Source: Candidatus Daviesbacteria bacterium (GTDB taxonomy: Bacteria > Patescibacteriota > Microgenomatia > Daviesbacterales > UBA10151). Taken from it: 64,000 nucleotides of DNA. The DNA lies in NCBI GenBank assembly GCA_016432425.1, contig CP066688.1:148368-212367 (forward strand), given 5' to 3'. Position numbers and translations under genes: made by a program. Within the stretch, counting starts at the first letter, position 1, and every line of letters begins with the position of its first letter. Shown in pieces: positions 39,258 through 64,000 of this stretch. Under the pieces are notes generated by a model. It was not told the origin of the DNA. It was given only the letters and a program-made list of their open reading frames with translations, and made no database searches.

Positions 39258-40265
39258 ATGGATCCACAAAATCCCAATAGTACTGACCCAAATAATCCAA
39301 ATATTCCCGCCTCTGGCCCAGGTGCTATCCCTCCTCCGCCTGTTACTCCTGTCCCGGTTCAGCCTGATTTAAGCAGTGCCTTAGGTCCTACTCCTCCACC
39401 AGTAGAACCTATTCCTACCCCAGACTCTAATCAGGTAAATATTCCACCTACTCCACCTACTCCAGACTTCAACCCCACACTTACCTATACCCCTCCTAGT
39501 TGGATGAATCCTTCTGCTACTACTCCTGCTAGTGATCCACTAATTCAAAATCCACTATCTGATGTTAATCCACCCGTACCCGCTCCCTTAGATAATCCCA
39601 TTGCGCCGCCGCCTACCCCTAGCGTTCCTCCGGTTGACCAGCCTATCGCACCCACTGAACCCACTCCAGCCGCTCCTCCACCGGTAGAGCCAATCCCCAC
39701 TTACATCCCTCCAGTCACTCCTATACCAGAAACATCTCCACCACCTCCACCGGCAGAACCTACTCCCGTAGGACCTAATCCCATTACTGAATCTAATTTA
39801 TCTCAAGGCGCACCGGTGGATTTATCTCAATTAATTAGCAATGCTCAACAGCAAGTCCAAACGGAAAATCCTGGTGGAATACCTGCCAGTCCCATCCCTA
39901 CGTCTACTGAGGGAGTTGTCAACGCCACCTCTGGGGTTATTACCGACACTGCTGTTTCTGGTAATGAACAAAGTTCTTCTATGAATAAAGGTTTGCCTAA
40001 ATGGCTAATTGGGGTAGCAGTAGGGCTGCTCATATTGGTTATCGGAGCCTCTGCTTATTTTATTTTAGGAATTGGTCAAAGTAATACCCAAACTTCACTG
40101 CCGGCTACTCAAAATACTGGGCAGTTGTCTACTCCGGCTCCCATCTCTTCACCTCGCAGTGTAGTTGCTCCTTCCTCATCTACTTCCTCTGGCCAACCAA
40201 CTGTGATTACACCACCAGCCACCTCAGCCGCAGATTTAATTAGACAAAGACAACAAGAACAATAA
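39258..40265 (+). CDS. Proline-rich surface-anchored low-complexity protein
   Basis: The first ~190 aa are extremely Pro-rich (PPVEPIPTP repeats). A single TM helix (WLIGVAVGLLILVIGASAYFILGI) is followed by an S/T-rich tail. Confidence 0.5.
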   Translation: MDPQNPNSTDPNNPNIPASGPGAIPPPPVTPVPVQPDLSSALGPTPPPVEPIPTPDSNQVNIPPTPPTPDFNPTLTYTPPSWMNPSATTPASDPLIQNPLSDVNPPVPAPLDNPIAPPPTPSVPPVDQPIAPTEPTPAAPPPVEPIPTYIPPVTPIPETSPPPPPAEPTPVGPNPITESNLSQGAPVDLSQLISNAQQQVQTENPGGIPASPIPTSTEGVVNATSGVITDTAVSGNEQSSSMNKGLPKWLIGVAVGLLILVIGASAYFILGIGQSNTQTSLPATQNTGQLSTPAPISSPRSVVAPSSSTSSGQPTVITPPATSAADLIRQRQQEQ

Positions 40266-46822: not shown

Positions 46823-46898
46823 GCCGCGTTCGTCTAGTGGCCTAGGACATCGGATTCTCATTCCGAAAATCAGGGGTTCAAATCCCCTACGCGGTACC
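46823..46898 (+). tRNA. tRNA-Glu (anticodon CUC)
   Basis: A manual cloverleaf fold gives a 7-bp acceptor stem (GCCGCGU/ACGCGGU), a D-arm GUCUAGUGGCCUAGGAC, an anticodon stem UCGGA/UCCGA with loop UUCUCAU, and a T-arm AGGGGUUCAAAUCCCCU. The discriminator is A and CC is encoded. It is closely similar to canonical bacterial tRNA-Glu. Confidence 0.85.
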
Positions 46899-46906
46899 GA
46901 GCGATC

Positions 46907-46949
46907 CTACAAATTTAACCTGCAAACCTGCACTCCTGGAGTGAAATCG
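46907..46949. repeat. 43-nt direct repeat, copy 1 (half-element of the palindromic repeat family)
   Basis: CTACAAATTTAACCTGCAAACCTGCACTCCTGGAGTGAAATCG is identical to 48545..48587. Confidence 0.8.
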
Positions 46950-48544: not shown

Positions 48545-48608
48545 CCTACAAATTTAACCTGCAAACCTGCACTCCTGGAGTGAAATCGAATTGACAGACC
48601 AGGAGTGC
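48545..48608. repeat. Palindromic repeat element, full copy (43-nt direct repeat plus an inverted arm forming an 11-bp stem)
   Basis: 48545..48587 equals 46907..46949. TGCACTCCTGG (48567..48577) pairs with CCAGGAGTGCA (48598..48608) around a 20-nt loop. Confidence 0.7.
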
Positions 48609-59066: not shown

Positions 59067-60032
59067 TTAAGGTTTCTTAATGGGTGTGAGGGGACTCTGG
59101 CCTGAAAGAACAGCAATAATATTTTTGGCAGCTAGTTCTCCCATAGCGGAACGCGCTTCAGTAGTGGCAGAAGCAATGTGGGGAGTTAACACCACATTAG
59201 CTAAATTCTCCAAACCAGGGGAGAGTCGGGGTTCATTTTCAAACACATCTAAAGCCGCTCCTTTAATCACTCCAGATTTTAAACTTTGAGTTAAAGCTAC
59301 CTCGTCAACTACCGGACCCCGGGAGGTGTTTATTAAGTAGGAGGTAGGTTTCATCATTTTGAGCCTTTCGGCGTTAATCAGATGTTTAGTGGAATTAAGT
59401 AGGGGAACATGAATTGAGACTATATCTGAGACTGCCAGTAGTTCTTCAGGTGTGATTTTAAAAATAGCCCCTACTTTAGATTCAAATTCACTATTTTTCT
59501 TAACATCATAATAAGCTACTTCCATACCCACAGCTTTGCCTATTTCTGCCACTCGGGAACCAATTCTCCCCAAACCCAAAATCCCTAAGGTTTTTCCATT
59601 TAGCTCCATCCCTAAAAGCACTGAGGGCCCAAACTCTAAAGTTTGAGAACGGGCTAATTTATCAGCCTCCACAATTCGTCGGCTGATAGCAAAAATTAAA
59701 GCAATAGTGTGTTCTGCCACCGCTTCAGTTAAAACATCCGGGGTATTGGTGGCCACAATATTGTGCGACAAGAGGGCAGGGAGGTCCAAATTATCAAATC
59801 CCACCGCAAAATTGGCTACCACTTTTAAATTTGCTCCGGCAGCGCTGATAAAACTTTCATCCACCTTATCATTAAGTTGGGTGAGTACCCCATCTGCTCC
59901 CTGGATAAAATTTAACAATTCATTGCGGGCCAAAACCCGATCTTGGGGAGATACTGCCACTTCAAAGCCGGCCTCTTGCAGCATCTTAATACCACTACCG
60001 GGAATTTTGCGGGTCACCACCACTTTGGCCAT
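59067..60032 (-). CDS. D-isomer-specific 2-hydroxyacid dehydrogenase (glyoxylate/hydroxypyruvate reductase-like)
   Basis: The NAD-binding motif GILGLGRIGSRVAEIGKAVGMEV is present, along with the catalytic RGPVVDE...H triad region. Confidence 0.8.
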   Translation of the reverse strand: MAKVVVTRKIPGSGIKMLQEAGFEVAVSPQDRVLARNELLNFIQGADGVLTQLNDKVDESFISAAGANLKVVANFAVGFDNLDLPALLSHNIVATNTPDVLTEAVAEHTIALIFAISRRIVEADKLARSQTLEFGPSVLLGMELNGKTLGILGLGRIGSRVAEIGKAVGMEVAYYDVKKNSEFESKVGAIFKITPEELLAVSDIVSIHVPLLNSTKHLINAERLKMMKPTSYLINTSRGPVVDEVALTQSLKSGVIKGAALDVFENEPRLSPGLENLANVVLTPHIASATTEARSAMGELAAKNIIAVLSGQSPLTPIKKP

Positions 60033-60034
60033 AA

Positions 60035-60877
60035 TTAAATATTAACAATTTCAGAGAGAGTTTTAAACCGTGTTGGTAAAGTGTCAGAGAAAAACTCTTC
60101 TTGTTTTGTCCCCTGTAAAGTTAACCCTTCTTGCCAAAGGGCCCGGCCAGCCAAAAATCCCCGGGCCCCAGCTTTGGTAGCTACTGCCAGTTGCAATTTA
60201 AATTCTTCAAAACTAACACCACCCGTCAACAGTATCCAGGGGGTCTTTCCCACCAAATGAGAAATTTCCCGGCAGGCATCCTCATCTCCTGGATATTCCA
60301 ATTTCCAAACATCTGGTATTACTCCTACCTCTATAAAAGACCTGACTGATTCAATCACCATCCCAGCTTTTGAATCTACACTCCCGATGTGGAATTGTAC
60401 CTGCACATCGGGAGTGTAAGTTACAATTTCTAAAAAGAAAGGCAAATTATTTTGCTGACAATCTTTTAAAACCTGTTTAGCTGTTTCTAGCTGCACTTTT
60501 GCACTCCCTAATTGAGGATTAAAATAGACCAGTAATTTCGCTCCTGAGGCTCCTAAGTTTTTAACCTGCTCTACAGAATATTCTAATTCCGTAATTCTTT
60601 CTCTCTCCTGATCAAGAAAACCGCTTTTTTCTACAGGAAGCAGAAATGGTTTTAGTTGACAAGCTTCTTTGCAAGCTTCTAGACCAAAACGCTCGTCAAT
60701 CAAAAGCCCACTCATTTCATTGACCAAAGAATTAATGATTTTATTTTTTAGATCAATAATTTGCTCTTCTGTAACCTCCTGGGGGTTTCCCGGATTAACT
60801 ATTTTTTTAAAACTATCCCGATGATCCAAAGCCAACATTAAAAACTTACCGTTTTTTTGGAATTTAATGGTATTCAT
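60035..60877 (-). CDS. Class I aldolase, tagatose-1,6-bisphosphate aldolase (LacD)/DhnA-like, carrying an in-frame palindromic insert
   Basis: LMLALDHRDSF resembles the LacD-family N-terminal motif. The (beta/alpha)8 pattern runs through ...LLTGGVSFEEF. Confidence in the exact family is moderate. Confidence 0.55.
   Translation of the reverse strand: MNTIKFQKNGKFLMLALDHRDSFKKIVNPGNPQEVTEEQIIDLKNKIINSLVNEMSGLLIDERFGLEACKEACQLKPFLLPVEKSGFLDQERERITELEYSVEQVKNLGASGAKLLVYFNPQLGSAKVQLETAKQVLKDCQQNNLPFFLEIVTYTPDVQVQFHIGSVDSKAGMVIESVRSFIEVGVIPDVWKLEYPGDEDACREISHLVGKTPWILLTGGVSFEEFKLQLAVATKAGARGFLAGRALWQEGLTLQGTKQEEFFSDTLPTRFKTLSEIVNI
60377..60418. repeat. Perfect 15-bp-stem palindromic element (42 nt) lying in-frame inside the aldolase gene
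   Basis: TACACTCCCGATGTG-gaattgtacctg-CACATCGGGAGTGTA. The arms match the transposase-flanking repeat CACATCGGGAGTG. Confidence 0.75.
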
Positions 60878-61864
60878 TTATATTTCTTGGGCTTGAATTT
60901 TTAAATTAGCTTTTAACTTCTCCTGCATTTTATCATAAGTTAACAGCCCTGCCTGGGGGCCAATCTGCTCAACCACCGAGGCCCCGTTAGCTGCCCCCCA
61001 CCTCATGGCCTCAGCTAAATTTTTACCATAAGATAAGGCTGCACAAACTGCCGTAGCATAAGCATCCCCTGAGCCTGTCATCTCCAAAAGATCTGCCTTA
61101 AATATTCCCAGCTTAAAAAACTTTTCCCCGTCAAACCCGTATGAGCCTTCTGCCCCATCGGTAATAACTGCCATCCTGGGCCCTAAGTCCGCAATGCCTT
61201 TAAGAAGTTTTTTAATCTCCACCTTCCTCCCCTCATCAAAACCTAAAATTAATTTTGCCTCCTCCAGATTAACAATAAAGACTTCTGTTAAAGAGAGTAG
61301 CCTGGCATTTTTCTTCACCCCCAATTTAATTTGGAAAGTGCCCGGGTTAAACAGCAGTTTTGTGCCTGTCCTTTCCAGATAATTTATTAAATCCGGCACT
61401 AAGTTTGACTCAACATAAGTGGGGCCTAAAGAAGTAAAATAAACCCAGCGGGTTTTGTCCAAATCAGGCAGTTGATAGCTCCAGGGCTGGTGATAAATTA
61501 AGATGGTCCTGTCCCCTTTAAAGTTTAAAACAATATGGTGGTTGGAAGGCAGGTTTTTATCATGCATGATATATCTGGTATCTACCTTTTCCAGTTTAAA
61601 TTTAGCCACAATCCGTTGGTCATACTCTTCCTCATCTTTATCACCCACATAGGTAAAAACGGCAGTTTTAAGCCCTAAGCGGGAGGATCCCACCGCATTA
61701 TTGGCAGCATTACCGGCCACCAGGGAGGTAGAGGGCCCAACCGGAATTTTATCCCCATACCTTAAAATCAGCTTTCTTTCTCCCTGCTTTTGCTCCAGCC
61801 GGGCATCCTCCAGCGGGATAAAAGTATCCACCACCGAGTCTCCAATGGAAATTAAGTCAAACAT
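60878..61864 (-). CDS. PfkB-family carbohydrate kinase (ribokinase/tagatose-6-phosphate kinase-like)
   Basis: N-terminal ISIGDSVVDTF and the C-terminal PfkB signature EMTGSGDAYATAV. Confidence 0.8.
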   Translation of the reverse strand: MFDLISIGDSVVDTFIPLEDARLEQKQGERKLILRYGDKIPVGPSTSLVAGNAANNAVGSSRLGLKTAVFTYVGDKDEEEYDQRIVAKFKLEKVDTRYIMHDKNLPSNHHIVLNFKGDRTILIYHQPWSYQLPDLDKTRWVYFTSLGPTYVESNLVPDLINYLERTGTKLLFNPGTFQIKLGVKKNARLLSLTEVFIVNLEEAKLILGFDEGRKVEIKKLLKGIADLGPRMAVITDGAEGSYGFDGEKFFKLGIFKADLLEMTGSGDAYATAVCAALSYGKNLAEAMRWGAANGASVVEQIGPQAGLLTYDKMQEKLKANLKIQAQEI

Positions 61865-61895: not shown

Positions 61896-62114
61896 TTAGG
61901 AATCAAGAGGAACAGCCGAATAGCCTGATTTTTTGATGGTTGCTAAAATTTGCTGCTCATCCAATTTATTGGGATCAAACTCTATCTCAGTTTCCCCTTT
62001 AGCATAACTGGTTTTAGCTGCCTTCACTCCCTCTAAATCCTCTAAGTTCATATCAATGGTTAAGGCACAGGATGAGCAGTGCATATCTGTAATTTTAAAT
62101 TTCTTTTTAATCAT
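61896..62114 (-). CDS. Heavy-metal-associated (HMA) domain metallochaperone, MerP/CopZ-like
   Basis: 72 aa with the metal-binding motif MHCSSC (MxCxxC). It overlaps the upstream permease gene by 4 nt. Confidence 0.8.
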   Translation of the reverse strand: MIKKKFKITDMHCSSCALTIDMNLEDLEGVKAAKTSYAKGETEIEFDPNKLDEQQILATIKKSGYSAVPLDS

Positions 62115-63130
62115 ATGACCTCTATCACCCCCCGATACATTCCCATAGAACAGCTAAAGGGAATCTGGCCTTTTTGTGTGGGGGTGAAAGCAACCAATTG
62201 AGTATCATTAGGCTGTAAATTCCTGTTGATACCTAAAGAGGGAATCCTAAAAGATAAAGCACAGCTGTAAGCATTAACACTCTTCAAAGTTAAATTCACA
62301 GCTTCCCCTGCCTTTACCCTAACATAATTAGGGCCATAGCCAGAAGAAGTAATGAGTATTTGTGGGTTTTGGGTAACAGGGATATTGGTTTGAGTATTGC
62401 CTCCTGTATACCCACCATTACCACTCAAATCTACTGTAATAGAGGGCAAACTAATGGGTGAGCCTGCAGCCACTAAAGCCCCATTGGCTGAAATAATCCC
62501 TAAATAAAGCACCAGTAACCCGGCCAGCCTTAAAAACCTGCCCTGGAAATTATCACCTAAAATTGTGGTTAAAAAACCTACCCCAAAAAATAAAGGCATA
62601 GTGCCTAAAACAAAAGCAGCCATAATAGCAGCACCCCAAAAAGCATTGGCAGAGGAAATGGCCAAAGTCTCCATGGCCAACGTTGTGCCGCAGGGAATAA
62701 AGATAGTCATTGCTCCCAAAAAGGCCGGAGCAAAAATTTCCCTGCTTCTGGCCTGGTTTCTGACCATTTTGGTTAAAAACCTGGGCGGCTGGATAAGCGC
62801 ATATCTAAAAATAGGGTGAACTTTTAATAAATCTAAAGCTATAGCAATCATATACAGCCCGGCTATAAGCTGCATGAAAATCTGCACATTTGAGCTGATA
62901 TTTAAAGCCCCTCCAAAAGATCCCAGGATAAAACCTAAGATGGTATAAGCTGCTAACTTTGCAAGAAGAAAAGCAACGGTGGCAAAAATAGTATGTTTTC
63001 TCCTGCTGCCGCCTTCCAAGTCCTCCTCTTCCCTGACAGCAATGGTAGAGGCCAAAAGCCCTCCCTGCACAGCCAGACAAGTCAGCCCTCCCACAGTTAA
63101 ACCGGTTATAAAGATTAGCCAAAGATCCAT
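62111..63130 (-). CDS. Polytopic permease (TauE/DsbD_2-like) with a C-terminal cupredoxin-like soluble domain; putative metal-ion transporter of the mer-like operon
   Basis: 339 aa. The first TM carries a Cys (LTVGGLTCLAVQGG). The C-terminal ~100 aa (VRVKAGEAVNLTLKSV...FSCSMGMYRG) are beta-rich with Cys/Met. Confidence 0.45.
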   Translation of the reverse strand: MDLWLIFITGLTVGGLTCLAVQGGLLASTIAVREEEDLEGGSRRKHTIFATVAFLLAKLAAYTILGFILGSFGGALNISSNVQIFMQLIAGLYMIAIALDLLKVHPIFRYALIQPPRFLTKMVRNQARSREIFAPAFLGAMTIFIPCGTTLAMETLAISSANAFWGAAIMAAFVLGTMPLFFGVGFLTTILGDNFQGRFLRLAGLLVLYLGIISANGALVAAGSPISLPSITVDLSGNGGYTGGNTQTNIPVTQNPQILITSSGYGPNYVRVKAGEAVNLTLKSVNAYSCALSFRIPSLGINRNLQPNDTQLVAFTPTQKGQIPFSCSMGMYRGVIEVI

Positions 63131-63143
63131 TTTAAATATTATA

Positions 63144-64000
63144 CTAAATACAACAGCTTAATTTGGATATGTCCTTGGTAAATGAAAGCGCTGCAATCTT
63201 GATGCTCTCAGAAAGGGTGGGAAACATAGGCAGTGAGGTTACCACATCATCAATGGTATTTTTATTTTTAATAAGCCATATTGCTTGAGCAATCAATTCT
63301 CCTGCATTAGGTGCTAAAATATGGACTCCAAGAATTACTTTTGTTTCAGGGTGGATAACCATTTTAATTAAGCCTTCTGTACGGTTCATGATAATGGCTT
63401 TTGGTACATCGGCAAAAGAAACAGTGCGGCATAAGCATCTTCCTAATTGCTTAACCTCCTGTTCCTCAGTAAGTCCTACTCCTGCAAGCTGTGGGTCAGT
63501 AAAGATTGTCCAAGGGACAGTATTATAATCAATACTATTTTGAGTATTATTTAATGCATTATCAACTGCTAAGGTACCTTCTCGTCCTGCTGTTGGTTCT
63601 TGTCTGATAGACAGATTTATTACATCACCCACTGCATAAATATGAGGTTGAGAAGTTTGAAATTGTGGGCTTACTTTAATGGCCTGTTTCTCATCAATCT
63701 CCACTCCTGCTTTATCAAGGGCTAATCTTTTGGTATTTGGAGTTTTACCTGTTGCAAGCAGTATCTCATCTGCTTGAACCTGCTCTTGTTTATCTCCTAT
63801 CATGTAGGTGAGGATTTTCTTGCTACCTTCTTTTCTAGCAGATTTGACTTGAATATCGGTCTTAATGATTATTCCTTCTTTGGTAAGTATCTCTGCAAGT
63901 CTATTAGTTAATTCTCTTTCAGCTGGAGGGAAGATAGAAACATTTCTTTGTAAGATGGCAACTTTCGTCCCAAATCTGGCATACATTTGGGCAAATTCTA
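63144..64000 (-). CDS. merA: Mercuric reductase MerA, C-terminal portion (the gene continues beyond the right edge)
   Basis: ...EFAQMYARFGTKVAILQRN aligns with Tn501 MerA ELAQAFARLGSKVTVLARN. The C-terminus FTKDISKLSCCI carries the MerA-specific vicinal Cys pair (…KQLSCCAG in Tn501). The reading frame is open through position 64000. Confidence 0.8.
   Translation of the reverse strand, partial: EFAQMYARFGTKVAILQRNVSIFPPAERELTNRLAEILTKEGIIIKTDIQVKSARKEGSKKILTYMIGDKQEQVQADEILLATGKTPNTKRLALDKAGVEIDEKQAIKVSPQFQTSQPHIYAVGDVINLSIRQEPTAGREGTLAVDNALNNTQNSIDYNTVPWTIFTDPQLAGVGLTEEQEVKQLGRCLCRTVSFADVPKAIIMNRTEGLIKMVIHPETKVILGVHILAPNAGELIAQAIWLIKNKNTIDDVVTSLPMFPTLSESIKIAALSFTKDISKLSCCI

Follow-up and report, generated by a model that had tools for sequence, protein, structure and literature searches.

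At the right edge of a 64,000-nucleotide stretch of Candidatus Daviesbacteria DNA (GenBank assembly GCA_016432425.1, contig CP066688.1, positions 148,368 to 212,367; hereafter the window), three minus-strand open reading frames (ORFs) are arranged head to tail, and they raise the question of whether a mercury-resistance (mer) operon ends here or whether genes of different systems stand side by side. The three genes, between positions 61,896 and 64,000, encode the C-terminal part of a reductase, a membrane protein (the permease), and a small HMA-domain protein. An earlier note, made from the letters of the sequence, read them as a partial mer-like operon that had probably been acquired horizontally. 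Our analysis indicates that the reductase gene is a genuine merA, and that the other two genes belong, judged by gene order in relatives, to a copper operon. The best reading, and in our judgment a highly probable one, is that an arsR-merA cassette sits inside that copper operon, between copA and the permease gene.

The visible part of the reductase (Table 1) is identical (100%) to the C-terminal 284 residues of P0001, a 476-residue protein from a Ca. Daviesbacteria metagenome-assembled genome (MAG) that NCBI names mercury(II) reductase. It contains Pyr_redox_2 and Pyr_redox_dim domains, ends in FTKDISKLSCCI before the stop codon, and scores 306 bits against the NCBIfam MerA model TIGR02053 (model positions 181-464, 61% of the model), 88 bits above the score for the next-best NCBIfam family, lipoamide dehydrogenase (218 bits). 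Full-length P0001 reaches 512.5 bits against the TIGR02053 equivalog, above the curated cut-off of 454.45, and no other NCBIfam family reaches its own cut-off with this protein (RclA, 242 bits against 740; lipoamide dehydrogenase, 373 against 409). The earlier note had expected a redox-active CxxxxC farther upstream and held that without it the protein would be a generic disulfide reductase; because P0001 carries GGTCVNVGCVPSK (Cys43/Cys48, Bacillus positions 207/212) in the part outside the window, that objection falls away. The N-terminal HMA domain (NmerA), which had also been anticipated there, is absent from full-length P0001. The vicinal C-terminal cysteines (KLSCCI), correctly noticed in the first reading, correspond to Bacillus positions 628/629 and align with the ..LSCC end of the MerA structures 4ywo and 5x1y, and Tyr166 (..DVEYITH..) aligns in the same structures to Bacillus position 264. 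By the signature-residue criteria of Christakis et al. 2021 (PMC8261052), Phe at position 605 marks archaeal-type MerA and Tyr the typical bacterial enzyme, and the window has Phe451 at this position. The best solved-structure match of P0001 is Metallosphaera sedula MerA (4ywo, E 1e-98), which is also the closest characterized relative (PMC4500099); the top two matches, and five of the top six, are MerA.

On these signatures the edge ORF is the 3' 60% of a genuine merA, and the predicted product of that gene is an archaeal-type, core-only enzyme without NmerA. The enzyme itself is not new, as the gene is already annotated and belongs to a published clade. With archaeal-type core MerA (4ywo, PMC4500099; CPR clades K12-K14, PMC8261052; CPR, Candidate Phyla Radiation) it shares a length of about 460-480 residues without NmerA, the CxxxxC center, the conserved Tyr, Phe at Bacillus position 605, and a C-terminal ..LSCC(V/I), and it differs in nothing of substance. 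Seven Daviesbacteria genomes with MerA are assigned to clade K12, whose sister group is MerA from Thermococci and Archaeoglobi, and the CPR clade has been read as an old transfer from a thermophilic archaeon into CPR (PMC8261052). Microgenomates, the Davies-, Gottesman-, Levy-, and Woesebacteria among them, supply more than 100 MerA homologues that are 74-89% identical, and the best match in a metagenome scan is 84% identical. What sets the window gene apart is its setting: archaeal merA lies in operons of the merR-merH-merA type, whereas the gene described here would lie between copA and the permease gene.

The evidence for that setting comes from a census of 80 permease-centered loci in GTDB species-representative genomes (loci are numbered L004, L079, and so on), to which marker proteins were mapped by tblastn. 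In 78 of the 80, an HMA gene lies behind the permease gene, no more than 300 nt away. Where enough upstream sequence is present (74 loci), the gene immediately upstream encodes a CopA-type ATPase in 64, with a median spacer of 5.5 nt and, in L004, a 4-nt overlap. MerA is the upstream neighbor in one of the 74 (L079), and a CPR-type MerA lies within 6 kb of the permease in two loci (L079, L059). Three arrangements recur on Pfam-annotated contigs carrying the closest permease homologues (L004, L006, and L008 among them): csoR - cupredoxin_1 (119 aa) - HMA-P-type ATPase - permease - HMA; csoR - ATPase - permease - HMA; and dsbA - DUF3105 - permease - HMA, each continuing into pfkB or other housekeeping genes. 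DsbA-like or thioredoxin-like genes stand directly upstream of the permease in L043, L096, L097, L100, and L164, and in L006 with DUF3105 between. Gene order thus identifies the permease and HMA genes as the conserved terminal module of the Microgenomates cop operon, csoR - (variable genes) - cupA-like cupredoxin - copA - DsbD_2::CupA-like protein - copZ-like HMA.

A second census, centered on merA, covered 78 CPR-type merA loci from metagenomes. The permease lies directly behind merA in one of 32 loci (L092) and within 5 kb in three of 21. Upstream of merA, an ArsR/SmtB gene is the immediate neighbor in 21 of 59 loci and lies no more than 3 kb away in 29 of 36; in relatives this regulator has 101 residues and three Cys, and scores 66.7 bits against NF033788 (cut-off 55). 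The fuller CPR mer operon (examples in Table 1) reads arsR - membrane-anchored ResA-like redoxin (WCSTC) - MerC-family protein - merA, with 4-nt overlaps at the redoxin-merC and merC-merA junctions in L170. The CPR MerC-family protein scores 34.3 bits against PF03203 (cut-off 27.6) and carries CPLC in its first helix and a C-terminal CxxC. None of MerC, the redoxin, copA, or csoR was found in the visible 64 kb (tblastn with CPR MerC and redoxin). The two censuses do not support a self-contained, conserved mer operon as the first reading had it: the permease's neighbor is CopA in 64 of 74 loci and MerA in one, and the permease stands behind merA in one of 32.

Two features of these merA loci are recorded here in their own right. 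A thiol-disulfide oxidoreductase within a mer operon is unusual. A DUF1684 gene recurs beside merA-family reductase genes (L100:6576-7145, L059:2604-3128, L043:4960-5484); it stands directly behind a CPR-type merA in L100, and in L059 and L043 behind a merA-like reductase about 30-34% identical to P0001.

The merA-permease junction of the window recurs in only two loci. In L079 the order is csoR...cupA-like - copA - arsR - merA - (6 nt) - permease - HMA - pfkB, and in L092 it is copA 3' end - arsR - merA - (1 nt) - permease - HMA ... pfkB; looser versions of this neighborhood occur in L097, L100, and L160. In both junction-sharing loci copA and arsR thus stand just ahead of merA, L092 showing only the 3' end of copA. 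If the window follows L079 and L092, an ArsR/SmtB-type regulator and then copA would lie just beyond position 64000, and the three visible genes would be the end of a cop operon that very probably contains an arsR-merA cassette between copA and the permease gene.

Several observations weigh against this reading. The upstream arsR and copA are extrapolated from two loci whose permeases are 58-62% identical to that of the window. Only 13, 6, and 1 nt separate merA from the permease gene in the three genomes, and cassettes of the L079, L092, and window type have neither the redoxin nor the MerC found in fuller CPR mer operons; both observations would be expected if MerA truly worked together with the permease and the HMA protein. 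The DsbD_2 domain also resembles thiol-disulfide electron carriers, and DsbA-like genes lie upstream of the permease in several loci. Finally, a copper importer or passive exporter beside an ATP-driven exporter is not obviously useful, and the DsbD_2::cupredoxin family is uncharacterized.

The earlier note had 4-nt overlaps at every junction; this holds for permease and HMA, which share an ATGA (62111-62114), and not for merA and permease, which are separated by a 13-nt spacer. A scan of 58-64 kb gave no promoter-like or terminator-like sites above chance, so the transcription units are only inferred. The permease-HMA pair is probably co-transcribed with merA in this genome.

The cop operons of relatives show further features of interest. 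A 119-residue, membrane-anchored CupA-like Cupredoxin_1 protein is encoded just upstream of copA in L004 (3330-3689) and in most of L010-L089. CupA has been described as confined to a few streptococci (PMC7558416); contrary to that description, cop operons of Microgenomates encode CupA-like cupredoxins as a rule. Between csoR and the cupA-like gene, many loci have a further 2-3 kb of genes (L004:882-3319 and L079:2819-5501, for example); among the products are an Ig-domain protein of DUF1573/HYDIN-like type and a pair of proteins, each about 280-310 residues long, without a Pfam match. In L008 a serine recombinase lies just upstream of the cop operon. Many MAG records, L010, L012, and L014 among them, are titled 'uncultured Gammaproteobacteria bacterium' (one, Methanosarcinales archaeon), and these contigs carry Microgenomates-type cop operons 55-79% identical to that of the window; the titles look like placeholders or wrong taxonomy.

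The permease, identical to P0121 and named by NCBI 'sulfite exporter TauE/SafE family', is best described by its two Pfam domains, DsbD_2 and Cupredoxin_1, both of which the earlier note had proposed to look for; the same matches bear out its view that the protein is not MerT, MerC, or MerF. In 123 long representatives at no more than about 50% mutual identity, Cys147 is invariant, and Cys18, Cys290, Cys327, Met329, and Met331 are each at least 90% conserved. DsbD_2 was found in all 123, Cupredoxin_1 in 116, DsbD_TM in 36, and an N-terminal HMA domain in 17. At 50% identity the family comprises 4,023 clusters with E <= 1e-3 and 299 with E <= 1e-30, and the best permease match among GTDB species representatives is 79% identical. 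An AlphaFold2 model built from a 140-sequence alignment (mean predicted local distance difference test, pLDDT, 75.5; predicted TM-score, pTM, 0.68; a model from 20 close homologues, pLDDT 55.5, was not used) has six transmembrane (TM) helices and a disordered linker at residues 228-247. Lysine plus arginine counts per loop, averaged over 140 homologues, are 4.9/5.6/1.5 on one side and 0.0/0.1/0.1 on the other (about 12.0 against 0.2), and by the positive-inside rule both termini and the cupredoxin domain are predicted to lie outside. Consistent with this topology, 25 of 26 members with N-terminal extensions, HMA-fused members included, have exactly one additional hydrophobic segment, so that the HMA domain of the fused members would stay cytoplasmic.

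The tail, which is predicted to face outward, resembles pneumococcal CupA. Phmmer matched it to CupA (2mry/4f2e, E 6e-5) and to the CopA metal-binding domain (4f2f, E 2e-4), its Cys and CxMxM residues aligning with the CupA ligands, and the top Foldseek match of the model is 4f2e (TM-score 0.82, normalized by 4f2e length; root-mean-square deviation 1.0 A). The equivalent residues of CupA make up two Cu(I) sites, one bis-thiolate and of high affinity, the other rich in Met (PMC7558416). The tail shares with Streptococcus pneumoniae CupA and the CopA N-terminal cupredoxin (4f2e, 4f2f) the fold and the Cys...Cys-x-Met-x-Met pattern (S1 and S2 sites), and CupA of S. pneumoniae is also encoded in a cop operon. 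CupA, however, is a separate protein anchored by a single N-terminal helix; it lies on the cytoplasmic side and passes Cu(I) on to CopA. The window tail, by contrast, at about 24% identity, is fused behind TM6 of a six-TM DsbD_2 protein and is predicted to face outward. The TM domain matched no solved structure by Foldseek at E <= 1e-3, DsbD and CcdA included, only the cupredoxin tail being matched, and a sequence search found no DsbD_2 homologue in the PDB.

Two other families invite comparison. DsbD, CcdA, and ScsB share DsbD_2/DsbD_TM matches, six TM helices, outside termini, and one essential-looking Cys in each of TM1 and TM4 with the permease; unlike theirs, its partner is an HMA metallochaperone and not a thioredoxin, and its outer domain is a metal-binding cupredoxin and not a thioredoxin-like or Ig-like redox domain. 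COG2836 (HMA + DsbD_2) has been predicted in the CsoR regulon of gut Firmicutes (PMC4938975), and shares a DsbD_2 core linked to HMA in CsoR-controlled copper operons; in the window, by contrast, HMA is a separate gene and a C-terminal cupredoxin is added. COG2836 is likewise uncharacterized, and a literature search on PF13386 found no papers. MerT/MerP, MerC, and MerF have no sequence relationship to the permease, and any likeness to them would be one of logic only: an outer thiol site, intramembrane cysteines, a cytoplasmic HMA or Cys pair, and MerA. We regard the DsbD_2::CupA-like family as moderately novel, uncharacterized, and not specific to the window. A 601-residue paralogue in L078 (821-2626, minus strand) starts with HMA, continues with an additional TM helix and DsbD_2, and closes with two cupredoxins, the first with CSMGM, that are joined by a Gly/Cys-rich linker (GGGNCGGGGCGGCGGGG); another HMA gene lies just downstream.

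The third gene encodes a CopZ-like protein that begins directly with the first strand of its HMA domain (50.6 bits against a Pfam cut-off of 24.8, E 3e-13); no NCBIfam model, specific CopZ and MerP models included, reaches its cut-off with this protein.

For the reductase, the expected mechanism is established MerA chemistry, for which all needed residues are present. Hg(II) would be captured by Cys474/Cys475 of one MerA subunit, handed to the redox-active Cys43/Cys48 beside FAD, and reduced by NAD(P)H to volatile Hg(0); its entry into the cell probably proceeds without a dedicated transporter, as in simple archaeal merA operons. For the permease-HMA pair, we hypothesize, with about even confidence, a relay of thiolates between the cytoplasmic HMA CxxC and an outward CupA-like site (Cys290, Cys327-x-Met-x-Met), by way of Cys18 and Cys147 in the membrane; the metal passed along would be a soft one, chiefly Cu(I). 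Many LysE-superfamily relatives are exporters, and because the pair is controlled with copA under csoR, we lean toward efflux-side Cu(I) handling alongside CopA. The pair may also bind Hg(II), as a secondary, not conserved role.

The origin of the locus differs between its two halves. The earlier note took it as horizontally acquired; this stands for the arsR-merA cassette, which occurs in different contexts and belongs to a CPR clade that has been interpreted as an old archaeal transfer (PMC8261052), and fails for the permease side, which is syntenic. The closest MerA relatives (81-87% identity) lie in unrelated contexts, before a YHS gene in L001 and before a merR-like gene in L002, and so the cassette is mobile within Microgenomates. 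In L170 and L171 (MerA 87% identical) a mer cassette lies beside PLD-like, M23/LysM, HTH_3, Peptidase_M78, and DUF3800 genes; a 519-residue large serine recombinase ends that stretch in L170 (12301-17077), and L171 (4658-7729) shares the first four of those genes on a contig that stops before the recombinase position. Such a set of genes suggests an integrative mobile element residing in a CPR genome. By composition the window genes are native, contrary to what an imported block would lead one to expect: GC z-scores against 48 other long window ORFs are -0.2 (merA fragment), +1.2 (permease), and -0.6 (HMA), codon-usage distances are 0.24 (merA fragment) and 0.22 (permease) beside 0.214 +/- 0.046 for window genes of similar size, and GC, third-position GC (GC3), and codon usage of all three look native. 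The surrounding genes of the window are core genes (ribonucleotide reductase, Lon, SecA, H+-PPase, cyclophilin). Three housekeeping genes (59067..61864, minus strand; Table 1) serve as anchors of synteny and do not belong to the metal system; pfkB, the aldolase, and the dehydrogenase also follow permease-HMA in L004, L011, L063, L074, L075, L079, and others. The conserved order indicates that the permease side of the locus is inherited vertically, and there is no sign of a plasmid or of a Tn21/Tn501-type transposon, the sources that the earlier note had in mind.

Other explanations for the three genes meet the same body of evidence. That the edge ORF is a generic pyridine-nucleotide disulfide oxidoreductase, either a lipoamide dehydrogenase or an RclA-like Cu(II) reductase, is exceedingly improbable: the fragment does match lipoamide dehydrogenase (218 bits) and many other family members, and an RclA-like enzyme might suit a copper operon, but the MerA equivalog model is the only one whose cut-off is passed, the signatures at Tyr166, Phe451, and the C-terminal Cys-Cys are specific to MerA, and MerA accounts for most of the top structure matches, the first two included. 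This candidate was rejected because its model scores fall below their cut-offs. Recent import of the whole three-gene block from a plasmid or Tn21/Tn501-type transposon of an unrelated bacterium is very improbable and was likewise rejected. Mer genes are often found on mobile elements, and an arsR-(merC)-merA cassette of CPR relatives lies near a large serine recombinase; against this, among the top 120 homologues listed, the taxon-named MerA (74-100%) and permease (66-100%) proteins all come from Microgenomates or other Patescibacteria, composition is native, the permease-HMA-pfkB-aldolase-dehydrogenase order is syntenic in relatives, and the visible window has no merR, merT, merP, or transposase. 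A self-contained mer operon, with DsbD_2::cupredoxin taking up Hg(II) in place of MerP/MerT and HMA acting as a stand-alone NmerA that feeds the C-terminal cysteines of MerA, is a more substantial proposal that we nevertheless judge quite unlikely. The shared strand, 13-nt spacer, and ATGA overlap fit it, as do a MerA without NmerA, the merA-permease-HMA order in three diverged genomes (window, L079, L092), the lack in these cassettes of the MerC of other CPR mer operons, and a structural counterpart for each step of the MerP-MerT-NmerA-MerA thiol relay. The census counts speak against it, with copA as the gene linked to the pair in 64 of 74 loci and merA in one, and the permease directly behind merA in one of 32 merA-centered loci and within 5 kb in three of 21; moreover, the ligands in the soluble domain are the Cu(I)-specific set of CupA, its Met-rich S2 site included, and CPR mer operons that have a transporter use MerC (PF03203, above cut-off). 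In a variant that we consider unlikely, the permease and its HMA partner would form an undescribed class of cysteine-relay transporter for soft metals, running from the outer cupredoxin site over the two intramembrane cysteines to the cytoplasmic HMA, and would have been co-opted, in the few Daviesbacteria with arsR-merA directly ahead of the pair, for Hg(II) uptake and delivery to the NmerA-less MerA; if so, the co-opted pair would be a non-homologous functional replacement of MerP, MerT, and NmerA.

A further alternative concerns the permease mechanism only and is compatible with a cassette inside a cop operon. The membrane protein could be a DsbD/CcdA/ScsB-like carrier of reducing equivalents through Cys18/Cys147, and not a metal conduit, keeping outward thiols (Cys290/Cys327 or those of a neighboring DsbA-like protein) reduced so that they can sequester Cu(I). 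This is possible, if doubtful. DsbD_2 in 123 of 123 representatives and DsbD_TM in 36 speak for it, together with conserved Cys in TM1 and TM4 and termini outside, as in CcdA and DsbD, and with the DsbA-like or thioredoxin-like genes upstream in five loci and one gene away in L006; the Scs system, too, links a DsbD-like protein to copper tolerance. Yet the constant cytoplasmic partner, sometimes a fused domain, is HMA and not thioredoxin, the outer domain keeps the full CupA ligand set including both Met, and no solved DsbD or CcdA structure was matched by Foldseek at E <= 1e-3.

Table 1. Positions of the features discussed (window coordinates unless a locus is named).
Feature	Position	Strand	Basis or remark
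merA 3' part (mercuric reductase)	63144..64000	-	codes for residues 193-476 of P0001 plus stop; gene continues past the edge
Phe451 codon (Bacillus MerA position 605)	63222..63224	-	alignment to 5x1y, 4ywo (..PMFPTL..)
Vicinal Cys474-Cys475 codons, Hg(II)-acquiring	63150..63155	-	sequence; aligned to LSCC terminus of MerA structures
merA/permease spacer, 13 nt (TATAATATTTAAA, coding strand)	63131..63143	-	read from sequence
Membrane protein, 339 aa: six-TM DsbD_2, disordered linker, CupA-like cupredoxin domain	62111..63130	-	Pfam, AlphaFold2
DsbD_2 TM domain, residues 6-212	62495..63115	-	Pfam, E 7e-32
Intramembrane Cys18 (GGLTCLAVQGG)	63077-63079	-	TM1
Intramembrane Cys147 (IPCGTT)	62690-62692	-	TM4
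CupA-like Cupredoxin_1 domain, residues 254-336	62123..62371	-	Pfam, E 4e-11
Cupredoxin ligand Cys290	62261-62263	-	alignment to CupA
Cupredoxin ligands Cys327-Ser-Met329-Gly-Met331	62138-62152	-	alignment to CupA
CopZ-like HMA metallochaperone, 72 aa, no signal peptide	61896..62114	-	Pfam HMA
CSSC motif of HMA protein	62067-62078	-	MHCSSC at residues 11-16
PfkB kinase	60878-61864	-	Pfam
DeoC-family aldolase	60035-60877	-	Pfam
2-hydroxyacid dehydrogenase	59067-60032	-	Pfam
REP-like head-to-head pair, in frame inside the DeoC-type aldolase gene	60370-60419		encodes roughly TPDVQVQFHIGSV
Other REP-like copies	26213, 46927, 48566, 53836, 54551		
Fuller CPR mer operon, examples	L100:3843-6559; L095:6717-9407; L170:6635-9404		

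The earlier note had also taken neighboring genes with repetitive extragenic palindromic (REP) elements as a sign of horizontal acquisition. The elements are real: a REP-like palindrome with core CCTGCACWYCSGGAGTG has 8 matches in the whole window against 0.27 expected. The same search found no copy in the merA, permease, or HMA gene, and the elements are for this reason uninformative on horizontal acquisition. The in-frame aldolase insert resembles Rickettsia palindromic elements; a comparable insert is present in the L075 aldolase, and TPDVQVQFHIGSV-type residues are missing from the homologues in L074, L063, and L028. The REP-like core occurs in two copies of 44 nt, 100% identical to each other, at 46906-46949 and 48545-48588, the first starting 8 nt after a tRNA-Glu(CTC) gene (46823-46898). 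Apart from these repeats, a 336-residue ORF without a Pfam match (39258-40265, plus strand) has outlying composition (GC 0.485, GC3 0.286, codon distance 0.374 against about 0.21).

By itself, the merA described here adds no new biology; it is a known merA type whose setting is very probably a conserved copper operon. When merA has genes for a thiol-rich permease and an HMA protein as neighbors, these can mimic a novel mer transport system, and it is the comparative context that marks them as copper-operon genes, which calls for caution in annotating such loci. The wider interest lies with the permease family, which is large (about 4,000 clusters at 50% identity) and would couple a cytoplasmic HMA site to an outward CupA-like site through two near-invariant membrane cysteines. 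The family may bear on the handling of Cu(I), and possibly of Hg(II), in ultra-small bacteria with simple envelopes.

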